NCBI GenBank assembly: GCA_963734535.1
Contig: CAVTHS010000011.1
Location: 128,001 to 192,000 of the forward strand
DNA length: 64,000 bases
Direction: 5' to 3'
DNA from: an uncultured Chloroflexia bacterium
Lineage (GTDB): Bacteria > Chloroflexota > Limnocylindria > Limnocylindrales > CSP1-4
Shown here: piece after piece, positions 52,108-56,472 of the stretch
How the letters are laid out: each line of letters starts with the position of its first letter
Numbering within the stretch: the first letter of the stretch is position 1
Position numbers and translations under genes: made by a program
The notes under the pieces: generated by a model
Database searches by the model: none
Seen by the model: only the letters and a program-made list of their open reading frames with translations
What the model was told of the DNA's origin: nothing

Positions 52108-52806
52108 CTCGGCGCCCCGGCTGCGTCGGGCCGCGCCCGCCGGGCGATCGCGACGACCTCGAGCAGGTGCCGCGCCGCGGATGCAGGATCAGCAGCGCCG
52201 GCGATCGCGCCGATCACCGCCACGCACGTCGGCGCCGGCCCGGACGGCCGCGGCGGCATTCTCCGGGGTGATCCCGCCGATCGCGACGATGGGCACGGCT
52301 CCACAGCCGCACGAGCCGCCGGCGAGGAGCTCGAGCCCCGTGTGCTGCGCATCCGCCTTCGAGTCGGTCGGGAAGACCGCGCCAACCCCGAGGTAGTCGG
52401 CGTCGCGCACGTCGGGCATCTCGAGCTGCGCGGGATCGGTGATCGAGAGTCCGATCAGGGCGTCAGGCCCGAGGATCGCGCGGGCGACTGCGACCGGCAC
52501 GTCATCCTGGCCGAGGTGGACCCCGTCCGCGTCGGCCGCCAGGGCAAGGTCGAGCCGATCGTTGACGAGGAGGAGCGCTCCGTGCTCGCGCGTGGCGCTG
52601 CGGAGCGCCAGCGCGATCTCCAGGCCGCGTCGCGCGGTCCCCAGCTTCTCGCGGACCTGCACGACCCCGATCCCGGCCGCGATGGCCGCCGCCGCGATCT
52701 CCACCGACGTGCGCCCGCCGCTGAGCGCCTCCTCGGTCACGAGGTAGACGCCGGCGGCGCGGAGCCGTTCCCGGCGCTGCACGCGACGATCGCCGAGCCC
52801 GGTCAC
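52104..52806 (-). CDS. thiE: Thiamine-phosphate synthase (frameshift near 52225)
   Basis: VQVREK, VNDRLDLA, DGVHLGQDD, PTDSK, AIGGI. Confidence 0.92.
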
Positions 52807-53627
52807 GCCGGCATCATCGGTGTGATCATTGCCCGAGTCCGGGCGCGGATCACGTCGCCGTCAAGGCCGTAGACCGCGTCCATGAGGTGCTGGCGAAACG
52901 TGCCGGGACCGGCGCTTCGCTCCGCCGCGATCTCACCGGCGATCCCGAACGCGATCATCGCGGCCGTGGCGGCCAGGAACGCGTCGGGCTGGACGGCCCG
53001 GAAGGCGCCCACGAGGGCGGTCGCCATGCAGCCCGACCCCGTGATCGCCCCCATCAGCGGGTGGCCGTTTTCCACCCTGGCGGCGCGCGTCGCGTCGGCG
53101 ACGTGATCGATCGCGCCGCTGGCAACCGCGGCGCTGCCCGTCCGCCGGGCGACGATCCGGGCGGCCACATCCGGCGCGTCCGCGGAGATGGAGTCGACGC
53201 CCTGGATCTCCGCGGCAAGCCCGGCGATGGCCGACAGCTCGGCGGCATTGCCGCGAACCACGTCGACGTGGACCGCGGCGAGGATCGCCTCCACGGCATC
53301 GGTCCGCAGCGTGGTCGCGCCGACCCCCACCGGGTCCAGCACCACCGGCACGCCGCGCTCGTTCGCCTCGCTGCCGGCGGCGAGCATCGCCTCGATCCAG
53401 GCCGGCTCCAGCGTCCCGATATTGAGCACGAGGGCACCCGCGTGGCGGACCATCTCGCGGACCTCGCCGATCGCGTGGGCCATGACCGGCGAGGCACCGA
53501 TGTGGAGGGTGACATTGGCCGTGTCGTTCATGACCACGTAGTTGGTGATCTGGTGGATCAGCGGGTGGCGGTCCCGGATCTCGGCAAGGGCATCGGCCGT
53601 GACGGCCCCGAGGTCGAGCTCACGCAT
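52803..53627 (-). CDS. thiM: Hydroxyethylthiazole kinase
   Basis: HQITNYVVMNDTAN, LNIGTL, LDPVG, RGNAAE, TGSGC. Confidence 0.95.
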   Translation of the reverse strand: MRELDLGAVTADALAEIRDRHPLIHQITNYVVMNDTANVTLHIGASPVMAHAIGEVREMVRHAGALVLNIGTLEPAWIEAMLAAGSEANERGVPVVLDPVGVGATTLRTDAVEAILAAVHVDVVRGNAAELSAIAGLAAEIQGVDSISADAPDVAARIVARRTGSAAVASGAIDHVADATRAARVENGHPLMGAITGSGCMATALVGAFRAVQPDAFLAATAAMIAFGIAGEIAAERSAGPGTFRQHLMDAVYGLDGDVIRARTRAMITPMMPA

Positions 53628-54453
53628 CGCGGTATCTCCACAGGTGATTCACGGGGCCGCGGCCCGCCCCGAGCGGCTCGGCGTGCTCGATCGCGCCCTG
53701 CAGGAAGACCTTTGCGGCCCGGGCCGCGTCGAGCGGCGTCGCTCCGCGGGCAAGGCCGGCCGCGATCGCCGCCGAGAACGTGCAGCCGGTCCCGTGCGTG
53801 TGGGGCGTGTCGATGCGCGGACTCGAGAGCACCTCGAACGTGGTCCCGTCGAACGCGATGTCCTCGGAGCGTTCGCCGCCGAGGTGGCCGCCCTTGACGA
53901 TGACCAGGCGCGATCCGAGCGCGTGGATCCGGCGGGCGGCCTCGCGCGCCGTCCGCGCGTCCACGACGTCGAGGCCGGCGAGCACGGAGGCCTCCGGGGC
54001 GTTCGGCGTGACCACTGCGGCGATCGGAAGGAGCATGTCACGCAGCGCCGCGATCGCGTCCTCGCGCAGGAGCCGGTCGCCGCCCTTCGCGATCATCACC
54101 GGATCGACGACGAGCCGCGTTATGCCGTGGGCGCCAAGGCAGCCGGCCACCGCCTCGACGATCGCCGCGCTGAAGAGCATCCCGGTCTTGACCGCGTCTG
54201 CGCCGATGTCGGAGAGCACGGCGTCGATCTGGGCCGCCACGACGTCCGCCGGGACCTCGTGGATCATCCGAACGCCTGTCGTGTTCTGGGCGGTGATCGC
54301 GGTGACCGCCGAGGCGCCATACACCCCGAGCGCTGCGAACGTCTTGAGATCGGCCTGGATCCCGGCTCCCCCGCCCGAATCGGACCCGGCGATCGTGAGC
54401 GCGCGCGGCCGCGGACGGCCGATCACACTGATCGCCTCATTGGTGGACGCCAC
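53620..54453 (-). CDS. thiD: HMP/HMP-P kinase
   Basis: [40 protein letters not shown]. Confidence 0.96.
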
Positions 54454-54523
54454 GGGATCCTGCGCCTCCTGACAATCGAGATGCCGTCCGTCGAGGAACG
54501 GGACGGCATCGAGTCAGGTGAGG

Positions 54524-54612
54524 CCTGCTTCCTTCGCTGGTACGAGCCAGATCAGGTTCGGCGGGTCTGTGGCTGGTGCCACACTCTCAGCGCTGTGCGC
54601 TCCCCGGAGGCG
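54524..54612 (-). ncRNA. TPP riboswitch aptamer
   Basis: Minus strand GGGGAGC...GCTGAGAG...ACCC...GAACCTGATCTGGCTCGTACCAGCGAAGGAA upstream of thiD; -10 TATACT at 54631-54636. Confidence 0.95.
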
Positions 54613-54743
54613 ATCTTCAGTTCGGTCGGCAGTATACGGGATGGCCGGATCGCGGCGGCGGGTGGCCCAGGGCGTGCAGAACGGCGCGAGGGCGTTCGCG
54701 ACGCGTCGGGGCTATCCTCCGGTGAGTGTCATCCTCCTCTGCG

Positions 54744-54883
54744 TCTCACGGTCTGGCTCGTATGCTCCCTGCCCACCCAGTGGGTGTGGCTTCCATGCGT
54801 TTTGCCGGCCGTGAGACTCGGTGGACCGGCCGGCGTGACTTGATAGGAGCGTGGCTTCGCCCCGACTCAGGTGTGTCCGCCGA
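54744..54883 (+). ncRNA. Bridge-RNA-like element with target-binding and donor-binding loops
   Basis: Stem 54744-54757/54804-54816 encloses guides TATGCTCC and CATGCGTT around hairpin CACCC/GGGTG; stem 54818-54826/54875-54883 encloses guides ATAGGAGCG and ACTCA. Confidence 0.8.
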
Positions 54884-54922
54884 CCGGCCCGGTGTCACCT
54901 CGGATGAGGAGGAGACGCAGAC

Positions 54923-55969
54923 ATGGTCGTCCTGGGCGCGGATCTGCACAAGCGGAGTCACACCGTCGTCGTGATCGATGCAACGGGTCGCCAGCTGGCC
55001 GAGAAGACGATCGCCGCGACGGACGCGGGCCACCTCGAGCTCCGCCGCTGGGCGGCGCGATGGCCCGAGCGGCGTGGGCCTCGAGGACTGCCGCCACCTG
55101 TCGCGCCGGCTCGATGCCGAACTCGTCCGGGCCGGTGAGTCGGTCGTCCGGGTCTCGCCCAAGCTGATGGCCGGCGCCCGCCGCTCCGGACGAGAGCCCG
55201 GCAAGAGCGATCCGATCGACGCCCTCGCGGTCGCCCGCGCCGTCCTGCGCGAGCCCAACCTGCCCGTCGCCTCGCTCGACGGCCCCGACCGCGAGGTGCG
55301 TCTCCTCGTCGACCATCGCGAGGATCTCGTCGGCGAGCGGACCCGCCACGAGCAGCGCCTGCGCTGGTTCCTCGTCGAGCTGGCCGTCGCCGAGCCCGCG
55401 CCCCGCTCACTCGGTCGGGCGGTCGTCCAGGCCGCGCTCACGGCGGCGCTCGCCGGTCGCACCGAGCCGGTGGCCCGCTTCGCCCGTGATCTGCTCGCCC
55501 GGATCGTCGAGCTGAGCGCCGCCATCCGCACCCTCGAGCACGAGATCGAGAGCCTGGTCCGAGTCGCGGCGCCGAGACTCCTGGCCTTGCCCGGCTGCGG
55601 CGCCCTGACAGCGGCCAAGATCATCGGCGAGACGGCCGGGATCAGCCGCTTCCGGTCCAAGGAGGCCTTCGCCCGGCACAACGGCACCGCGCCCAGTCCC
55701 GGTCTGGTCGGGCAACGTCGTCCGCCACCGCCTCAACCGGCGGCGGCAACCGCCAGCTCAACGTCGCCCTCCACCGGATCGCCATCACCCAGATCCGGCT
55801 CGCCGGTCCGGGCAAGGCGTATCTCGAACATCGACACGCCTCGGGTGACACCCGGACCGAAGCCATCCGCGCCCTTCGCCGACGGCTCAGCGACGAGGTC
55901 TTCCGCCGCCTGCGAGCCGATGAGGCTCTCCGGGCGACCGAGCGGGCCCCGCTCGCGACAGCCGCTTGA
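54923..55969 (+). CDS. IS110 transposase/recombinase (frameshifts near 55075, 55695 and 55740)
   Basis: GADLHK, LED, KSDPIDA (DEDD); LPGCG; TAP..VWSG (catalytic Ser); GNRQLNVALH; ALRRRLSD. Confidence 0.92.
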
Positions 55970-55983
55970 CATAGGAGCAACGC

Positions 55984-56472
55984 ATGTCGCAGATGCCAGC
56001 CGCCGGCGATCCGGCTCCCGCGATCGCCCTCCCCGACGAATCGGGCACGCTCCATCGCCTCGCCGACCGAGCCGGCGCCTGGACGGTTGTCTACTTCTAC
56101 CCGGAGGACGACACGCCGGGCTGCACGACCGAGGCCTGCGAGTTCCGCGACAGCTTCGCGAGCCTGCGCGCCGACGGCGCCGAGGTCTGGGGGATCAGCC
56201 CCGACGATGCCGGCAGCCACGCGAAGTTCCGGGCCAAGTTCGAGCTTCCGTTCACGCTCCTCTCCGACGAGGGCGCGGCGGTGACCAGCGCGTACGGCGC
56301 GTGGGCCGAGCGGACGAAGGACGGCCGGACGACGATGCGGACCATCAGGTCGACGTTCCTCGTCGGCCCCGACGGACGGATCGCGCACGCCTGGCCGGCC
56401 GTCAAGCCGGAGGGCCACGCCGCCGACGTCCGCGCGGTCCTGGCGGCCGCGAAGGCACGGGCGGGACGCTGA
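55984..56472 (+). CDS. bcp: Peroxiredoxin, BCP/PrxQ type
   Basis: YFYPEDDTPGCTTEACEFRD; GISPD; RSTFLV. Confidence 0.93.
   Translation: MSQMPAAGDPAPAIALPDESGTLHRLADRAGAWTVVYFYPEDDTPGCTTEACEFRDSFASLRADGAEVWGISPDDAGSHAKFRAKFELPFTLLSDEGAAVTSAYGAWAERTKDGRTTMRTIRSTFLVGPDGRIAHAWPAVKPEGHAADVRAVLAAAKARAGR

Follow-up and report, generated by a model that had tools for sequence, protein, structure and literature searches.

The window that we analysed, 64,000 nucleotides (nt) of contig CAVTHS010000011.1 from an uncultured Chloroflexia bacterium, very probably contains a 1259-bp insertion sequence (IS) of the IS110 family (IS110 group) at positions 54723-55981, the left end of which encodes a bridge RNA with two guide-carrying loops; taken as a whole, this is the best explanation of the locus. 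The element is inserted ahead of a bcp-type gene, with the promoter box on one side and the start codon on the other. For the wider clade, which is spread over Chloroflexota and Actinomycetota, we tentatively propose, giving the proposal nearly but not quite an even chance, that recombination is free of a shared core and set by RNA pairing, that a handshake of 3-4 nt that fits the products drives the reaction forward, and that many members are programmed to a leaderless -10 box plus start codon, taking the host promoter and returning a Shine-Dalgarno sequence.

Element ends and the two-loop bridge RNA

Contigs from public sequencing runs that carry the empty allele of the window locus align through 54722 and resume at 55982. 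The 1259 bases that they skip start with TG and end with AC, and zero bases fit both sides of the joint. The joint is present in two of the four public runs examined (X1 and X2, from two studies); one of the contigs is 912 nt long, and its left side contributes 423 aligned bases with 14 differing letters and one gap. Because no base at the 54722-55982 joint is ambiguous, the element can be placed at 54723-55981, with TATCCTCCGG/GCATG as its empty site (the slash marks the crossover here and below). The junctions at the window insertion thus read GG/TGAGT and AAC/GCATG, and there is no target site duplication, the joint skipping exactly the 1259 bases. Another contig of run X1 carries a related left end that begins at 54723 behind a different flank (...GTCGTAGACTCTCA). 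In public RNA runs, the fraction of the sampled words that is present is 0.08 at most.

The features of the locus, in window coordinates, are as follows.

54713-54720, + strand: left target TATCCTCC, beginning with TATCCT, the -10-like box of the bcp promoter
54721-54722, + strand: GG, two target-derived bases separating the left target from the crossover; empty-allele contigs align through 54722
54723-55981, + strand: insertion sequence, 1259 bp, placed by the 54722-55982 joint in runs X1 and X2 and by the geometry of locus L077
54723-54727, + strand: right donor pentamer TGAGT, reverse complement of 54865-54869
54730-54735, + strand: CATCCT, -10-like half of a putative circle-junction promoter, 17 nt from TTGACA when the ends are abutted
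54743-54817, + strand: target-binding loop; outer stem 54743-54757 with 54804-54817, inner stem-loop 54771-54790
54761-54768, + strand: left target guide TATGCTCC, matching TATCCTCC at 54713-54720 in 7 of 8 positions
54794-54798, + strand: right target guide CATGC, pairing with GCATG at 55982-55986
54799-54802, + strand: target-loop handshake segment GTTT, pairing with the last bases of the element itself
54823-54890, + strand: donor-binding loop; outer stem 54823-54839 with 54875-54890, inner stem-loop 54853-54861
54843-54850, + strand: left donor guide ATAGGAGC, identical to 55971-55978
54865-54873, + strand: right donor guide ACTCA (54865-54869), reverse complement of TGAGT at 54723-54727, with handshake segment 54870-54873
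54923-55969, + strand: recombinase pseudogene, with PF01548 and PF02371 matches on its pieces
55966-55971, + strand: TTGACA, -35 box in the right end, overlapping the recombinase stop codon TGA at 55967-55969
55971-55981, + strand: left donor ATAGGAGC plus terminal AAC; includes AGGAG at 55973-55977, 6 nt ahead of the bcp ATG
55982-55986, + strand: right target GCATG; includes the bcp start codon at 55984
55984-56472, + strand: bcp-type peroxiredoxin gene, 162 amino acids (AhpC-TSA, 123.9 bits, residues 8-135)

A second locus, L077, can be compared in the same way. Its filled site reads TTTCTTCGCG/TCAGTGCC...ATAGGAGCATC/GCGGAGCTCG, and the uninterrupted site, present in two of the five genomes searched, reads TTTCTTCGCGGCGGAGCTCGA. 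Therefore, the L077 element starts at its right-donor pentamer and ends 3 nt past ATAGGAGC, and it has no base in common with the target. When this geometry is applied to the window, the rebuilt site is 15 nt long, the same length as in five related empty alleles. All five read TAT(C/T)CTC(C/G), three variable bases and CATG, with 15 nt from TAT to ATG, and the positions matching 54721-54722 are GA or GG. The empty thiD-bcp spacer is found in four relatives and in a second contig of the window's own assembly. This second contig (G000:C12:16676-17719, L049) is 93-95% identical to the window locus, which suggests that two strains are binned together in the assembly (contamination 7.1%). At the L039 and L038 sites the relatives with empty alleles are 70-84% identical, so that the box and start codon are visible and the ends are not fixable. 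Registers modelled on IS621, with a CG or a CT core, were also tried and rejected; they predict empty sites that are 2 nt too short or 3 nt too long.

An earlier note on this DNA had placed the element at 54721-55978, with TATCCTCC/AACGCATG as the empty site, ATAGGAGC/GGTGAGT as the circle junction and one shared core base, C. That version offers longer guide matches, 8 of 8 for CATGCGTT and 9 of 9 for ATAGGAGCG, and a C that ends both left arms. Nevertheless, it is very improbable. The contigs joining 54722 to 55982 contradict it, moving its left end by 2 nt and its right end by 3 nt; all five related empty alleles are 1 nt shorter than its reconstruction (15 nt, not 16); the L077 comparison places the 3 nt after ATAGGAGC within the element; the two bases before TGAGT differ (CC, CC and CG) among copies of genome G011 that have the same bridge RNA; and the spacer of the junction promoter described below becomes 16 nt, not 17. 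The rebuilt empty site and circle junction of that version are wrong, the target of about 16 nt shrinks to 8 + 2 + 5 = 15 nt, the target loop reads 13 of these, and no base is shared at the corrected ends. The two long matches survive in part. The segment CATGCGTT is indeed the 8 of 8 reverse complement of 55979-55986, but it cannot as a whole be read as facing the right target, since AAC at 55979-55981 belongs to the element. Likewise, eight bases of ATAGGAGCG equal ATAGGAGC, but the ninth matches a target-derived base (54721) by coincidence.

The left end can be folded into two stem-closed internal loops with an inner hairpin in each. The fold, drawn by hand on 14 sequences, has 41 pairs with 91.5% of cells paired, and 15 of the 41 pairs are changed on both sides, compared with 6.4 ± 1.6 in shuffles and 3-5 in slid controls. 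In particular, both sides are changed in 7 of the 14 pairs of the target-loop outer stem and in 4 of the 16 pairs of the donor-loop outer stem. The compensatory changes support the two-loop fold. The hand-drawn structure was tested in place of the RNAalifold prediction for the donor loop, in which the conserved guide is paired with itself. A covariance model built from the 14 sequences has 88 matches in 94 sources and gives the bridge RNA region of the window 164 bits; in 65 of the 88 matches all four loop strands are 13 nt long (13/13/13/13). A scan of 54300-56200 with Rfam 15, at expectation values (E) up to 1, returns a thiamine pyrophosphate (TPP) riboswitch as the only family match.

The architecture varies in some copies. 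At L056:726-876 the donor loop is intact, and the place of the target loop is taken by unrelated sequence, its strands coming out as 'TTT' and empty. In mycobacterial loci, L106, L114 and L092 among them, a further hairpin of about 28 nt separates the left end from the target loop; the model starts 40-44 nt from the left end in copies of this type and 12-13 nt from it elsewhere.

Guides, flanks and the crosswise handshake

In a recombinase-alignment scan of genome contigs, 600 stretches matched and 528 of them encode a relative; the best 80 were kept. Judged by their labels, these 80 are from Chloroflexota (several of them Limnocylindria) and, in many cases, from Actinomycetota, including Mycobacterium and Streptomyces. 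Many mycobacterial loci carry the clade's bridge RNA. The junction analysis uses 65 of the 88 covariance-model matches, 23 having been left out for a loop strand other than 13 nt or an incomplete match. A left junction is available for 55 of the 65 elements, a right junction for 56 and both for 51.

In these elements the guides vary together with what they face. Positions 4-11 of the target-loop 5' strand covary with positions -10 to -3 of the left junction (numbered from the right-donor pentamer), and positions 4-12 of the 3' strand track, antiparallel, the nine bases after ATAGGAG (z 5-10); the matrices of guide against junction show clean diagonals. The left target guide fits its own flank at 7.40 of 8 positions (n = 55), compared with 4.23 for elements with other guides (n = 2892), and the right target guide fits its own flank at 4.20 of 5 (n = 56), compared with 1.73 for other elements. 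On the donor side, the left donor guide variants of relatives (ACAGGAGC, AGAGGAGC, ATAGGAGT and ATAGGAGA) reappear in the right end, and the left-end pentamers TGAGT, TCAGT, TCAAT and TTTAT accompany complementary guides. As judged from these comparisons, the guide matches exceed chance, and the flanks of the target covary with one of the loops as the ends of the element do with the other.

The target loop thus reads the flanks of the window copy, 54713-54720 through the left guide and GCATG at 55982-55986 through the right guide, and the donor loop reads the element's own ends, ATAGGAGC and TGAGT. The crossover falls directly 5' of both pentamers, where target and element have no base in common. 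Much of what the earlier note had read from the locus holds here. It had recognised an IS110 bridge RNA whose target and donor loops are read against its own junctions, with four segments in this order, TATGCTCC at 54761-54768, CATGCGTT at 54794-54801, ATAGGAGCG at 54843-54851 and ACTCA at 54865-54869. The segments are at these positions, each in a stem-closed loop (13-nt internal-loop strands, with compensatory changes in the stems). The 7 of 8 match of TATGCTCC to the left target is borne out by TATCCTCC at 54713-54720, ACTCA is the reverse complement of TGAGT at 54723-54727, and the covariation of guides and flanks across relatives that the note had set as a test is seen in the left target guide figures above. 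A pattern search of the window's own genome (assembly 89.94% complete) finds no perfect site for the guides of the window copy.

The donor and target of IS621 share a CT dinucleotide at positions 8-9, and after insertion this CT stands at either end of the element (PMC11208158, PMC11208160). The clade of the window element departs from this arrangement, as the earlier note had anticipated. The dinucleotides before the right-donor and right-target pentamers are equal in only 2 of 51 elements; in L077, for example, the junction bases are CG/ and ATC/.

Instead of matching each other, these bases fit the guides crosswise. In the right target guide strand, positions 9-12 complement the last four bases of the element in 92, 96, 98 and 67% of the 51 elements, and the same positions fit the target's own bases in only 49, 10, 10 and 41%. 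Conversely, in the right donor guide strand, positions 10 and 11 are complementary to bases -2 and -3, which derive from the target, in 71% and 53% of the 51 elements, compared with 41% and 34% in a shuffled control; complementarity to the bases of the element itself is limited to 4% and 37%. A single base, the element's last and usually a C, fits position 9 in both right guide strands (92% and 82%). The target carries the same base in 23 of the 51 elements; in the window copy it differs (G in place of C). Because the complementarity is crosswise, both right guide strands fit the products of recombination, not the substrates. The complementarity is seen across the family, and a handshake that acts in strand exchange is its probable role. 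By analogy, the crosswise fit resembles the handshake of IS621, extended over the positions of the IS621 core. The products seen are all of the type that the top strand predicts.

Promoter box and start codon as the probable target

The left target is TANNNT plus two bases in 34 of the 55 elements, and in 30 of 51 there is also an ATG or GTG that lies within the right-target pentamer or immediately behind it. When these 30 sites are rebuilt with the revised ends, 19 of them have 6 nt between hexamer and start codon and another 8 have 7 nt. In bacterial promoters, 6-7 nt is the usual distance from the -10 box to the transcription start. All ten downstream open reading frames (ORFs) tested have Pfam domains that begin 5-54 residues in, indicating that the ORF starts are true gene starts. 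The genome of the window contains 128 occurrences of TANNNT-N6-ATG, compared with 47 in a reversed control (2.7-fold), and 56 occurrences of TANNNT-N10-ATG, compared with 54. This enrichment suggests that leaderless-type starts are common in the organism. Many of its TANNNT-N6-ATG sites read TAC(C/G)ATCCGGCCATG. The hexamer is kept in all five related empty alleles, 6 nt before the ATG. Taken together, the geometry points to the -10 box plus start codon of leaderless-type genes as the probable target.

Such a target would have consequences for both parties. The host TATCCT lies 4 nt ahead of the element, so transcription would start in the element's first bases and run through the bridge RNA and the recombinase gene. 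At the other end, AGGAG at 55973-55977 is 6 nt before the bcp ATG, and bcp could be translated as a downstream cistron with a Shine-Dalgarno sequence supplied by the element. If the ends are simply abutted, the predicted circle junction is ATAGGAGCAAC/TGAGTGTCA, and it would form a promoter of TTGACA, a 17-nt spacer and CATCCT (the spacer is 16 nt with the ends 54721-55978). TTGACA is present in 54 of 56 right ends, and NANNNT occupies element positions 8-13 in 54 of 55 left ends, compared with at most 3 of 55 in shifted registers. On direct reading, with no dedicated repeat search, the ends TGAGTGTCA... and ...ATAGGAGCAAC are not inverted repeats.

Not all members use this kind of site. A sub-group (L077, L090, L111, L119, L130, L071 and others; L156 and L157) is inserted in a conserved TTTCTTCGCG/GCGGAGCTCGA stretch, which may lie in an IS3-family transposase gene, in which case these elements target another element.

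Several observations weigh against the explanation given here. The right donor handshake segment of the window copy misfits its own left junction (CACC against CCGG). The spacer between left target and crossover is not constant, being 2 nt in 33, 3 nt in 14, 1 nt in 5 and 4 nt in 3 of the 55 elements; among the 12 close copies, five have a left spacer one base longer than the rest. The left junctions were located by the right donor guide itself, so that the match of this guide to the element end is no independent test, and the related elements are kin, so that the permutation figures overstate independence. The right target guide of L041 does not fit the L041 flank. This copy, from genome G018, is frameshifted, and its right junction (ATC CCATG) fits the guide of the L042 and L043 elements; either decay after insertion or guidance in trans by the bridge RNA of another copy may account for the mismatch. 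As to the target, the leaderless reading, promoter capture and the junction promoter are drawn from sequence geometry alone. At the L039 site, the empty alleles of relatives have spacings of 6 to 8 nt, mostly 8, a poorer fit to a leaderless start. The downstream frame is open in 25 of 30 elements, but the +2 frame is open in 21 of 30, which makes this a weak test in DNA rich in guanine and cytosine (G+C).

Two other accounts of the missing core compete with core-free recombination set by RNA pairing. One retains the chemistry of IS621, in which both strands are cut with a stagger across a 2-nt core; the cores need not match, and the mismatched duplex is settled by repair or replication. It agrees with the homologous loop layout, that is, a 13-nt 5' strand (3-nt linker, 9-nt guide and 1-nt linker) and a 5-nt right arm (PMC11208158), and with position 9, at which each of the right guide strands pairs with the terminal base of the element (92% and 82%). 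However, replication of a mismatched core predicts two product types and the top-strand type alone is seen, the right target guide strand agrees with the bases that follow ATAGGAGC in 92-98% of the 51 elements, and the donor's core dinucleotide is found at the left junction in 2 of 51. We consider this account unlikely. According to the other account, only the top strand is cut and is transferred as a single-stranded circle, in a copy-and-paste reaction that needs no core homology. This predicts a single product type and absent microhomology, as seen, and IS621 mostly excises one strand according to a 2026 preprint, as far as the part consulted describes it (10.64898/2026.08.31.748434). On the other hand, nothing in the letters speaks to strandedness, the IS621 of the preprint does have a core, and no circular or single-stranded form is seen among the contigs of the four public runs. 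Top-strand transfer is therefore no more than a fairly serious contender, on the doubtful side. Mismatch-tolerant exchange of two strands and top-strand transfer cannot be told apart from sequence alone.

The target, too, can be read differently. The TANNNT box and start codon may not be leaderless promoters, the clade drifting instead among similar G+C-rich sites near gene starts. The mostly 8-nt spacing at the L039 site in relatives and the 21 of 51 elements that target other sequences would fit such drift. We find it improbable, though not negligibly so, in view of the sharp peak of the rebuilt spacing (6-7 nt in 27 of 30), the 2.7-fold enrichment of the TANNNT-ATG arrangement in the window genome at N6 and not at N10, the conservation of the hexamer in empty alleles while the surrounding intergenic DNA varies, and the hexamer's middle three bases, which vary together with the guide. 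Programmed targeting of the box and start codon remains our preferred reading of these sites.

Recombinase, relatives and known systems

The recombinase gene of the window copy (54923-55969) is a pseudogene. PF01548 gives 27.7 bits on a first piece, just under the cut-off of 29, and 46.3 bits on a second, and PF02371 gives 34.7 bits on a piece of the gene. Compared with the intact L036 gene, indels break the frame near 55076 (-2), 55691 (+1) and 55741 (+1), and there are two further in-frame indels. Related copies in the public-run contigs carry the corresponding missing or extra bases at 55072/55075 and 55739. Because these three frameshifts break the recombinase gene, the window copy is inactive, and the new programmable recombinase of the earlier note is not a working one in this copy.

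An intact frame of 345-349 amino acids is present in 9 of the 12 copies compared, the exceptions being the window copy, L041 and L042. With the model NF033542 ('IS110 family RNA-guided transposase', cut-off 140), the intact orthologue L037 reaches 177.4 bits over residues 4-334. An intact orthologue matches the transposase chains of ISCro4 (E 1.4e-8) and IS621 (E 3.4e-4), and the ISCro4 alignment spans the G-x-D, D-x-x-D and S-G motifs. In accordance with membership of the IS110 family, a DEDD RuvC-like domain (PF01548) and a C-terminal Tnp domain (PF02371) are found. S263, which is invariant in four intact orthologues, is probably the catalytic serine.

The window genome holds one full copy, a 65-nt remnant (83% identity) and three weak matches. 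The remnant (G000:C2:217752-217816; L002, about 1490-1575) is the left end of a related element and reaches only the target-loop inner hairpin. It is positioned between a -10-like TAGGCT and the ATG (L002 1572) of a 156-amino-acid ORF, and has the appearance of a deletion derivative in a site of this type. Near full-length copies of 74-80% identity number at least 11, in five of the 61 genomes searched (60 relatives and the window's own); the copy counts are lower bounds, at most 4-5 candidates being scored per genome. Upstream of the window element, the TPP riboswitch lies at 54511-54616 on the - strand (65.2 bits, gathering score 54.3), ahead of a thiD-like ORF (53620-54453); this ORF and a thiM-like ORF (52803-53627) are named from their translations alone. 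The insertion is about 100 nt past the riboswitch, within the divergent spacer.

In kind, the element belongs to a known class, the IS110 elements with a bridge RNA; at the level of the family, the departures are the absent shared core, the crosswise handshake and the targeting of a promoter box plus start codon. Like IS621 (PMC11208160, PMC11208158), it combines DEDD RuvC-like and Tnp domains with a left-end RNA that has a target and a donor loop. In both, the bottom strand of the left arm is read by the 5' strand of a loop and the top strand of the right arm, 5 nt long, by the 3' strand; handshake bases are complementary to the partner DNA, a promoter (predicted in our case) is split between the right and left ends, and there are no terminal inverted repeats and no target duplication. 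The 13-nt length of the target-loop 5' strand is also the same (PMC11208158). Unlike in IS621, the corresponding core bases differ between donor and target, with none shared at the window insertion, and the arms have their own dimensions, with left arms of 8 nt, a donor site of 8 + 3 + 5 nt and a commonest target of 8 + 2 + 5 nt. The similarity of the recombinase to that of IS621 is remote (E 3.4e-4), and the best match of the intact orthologue to a solved structure is ISCro4 (PDB 9t56, E 1.4e-8). ISCro4/IS622, as used in 10.1101/2025.05.14.653916, need matching donor and target cores; the window clade shows no such match.

The seekRNA elements of the IS1111 and IS110 groups (ISEc11 and ISEc21; PMC11187229) are similar in that an RNA from a non-coding region has short matches to both target strands, each element or close group has its own target, and a circle with abutted ends carries a junction promoter; the circle is a predicted form in our case. 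They are different elements with different hosts and targets, and a target made of a -10 box and start codon is not mentioned in the parts of PMC11187229 that we draw on. A literature search for IS110 together with leaderless genes found nothing on the subject by title or abstract; published tables or ISfinder may already list the clade.

The mycobacterial IS900, IS901 and IS902 are IS110-family elements that insert in one orientation between a ribosome binding site and a start codon, at a consensus that contains CATG. The NCATG right target of the window clade resembles this consensus. Unlike at the IS900-type target, the left target here is a -10-like TANNNT and not a Shine-Dalgarno sequence, which instead comes with the element.

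Bridge recombinases are under development as programmable tools for genome rearrangement. The requirement for a shared core dinucleotide in IS621 and IS622 limits the sites that can be addressed, according to the parts of the papers cited above. The window copy itself is a decayed relic. If our proposal is true, a natural core-free clade with guides that favour the products points past the shared-core limit, and it bears on the question of one-strand or two-strand transfer. For the elements, landing between promoter box and start codon with a ribosome binding site of their own would be a low-cost insertion strategy, and for their hosts, such elements could mark leaderless genes in poorly studied phyla.

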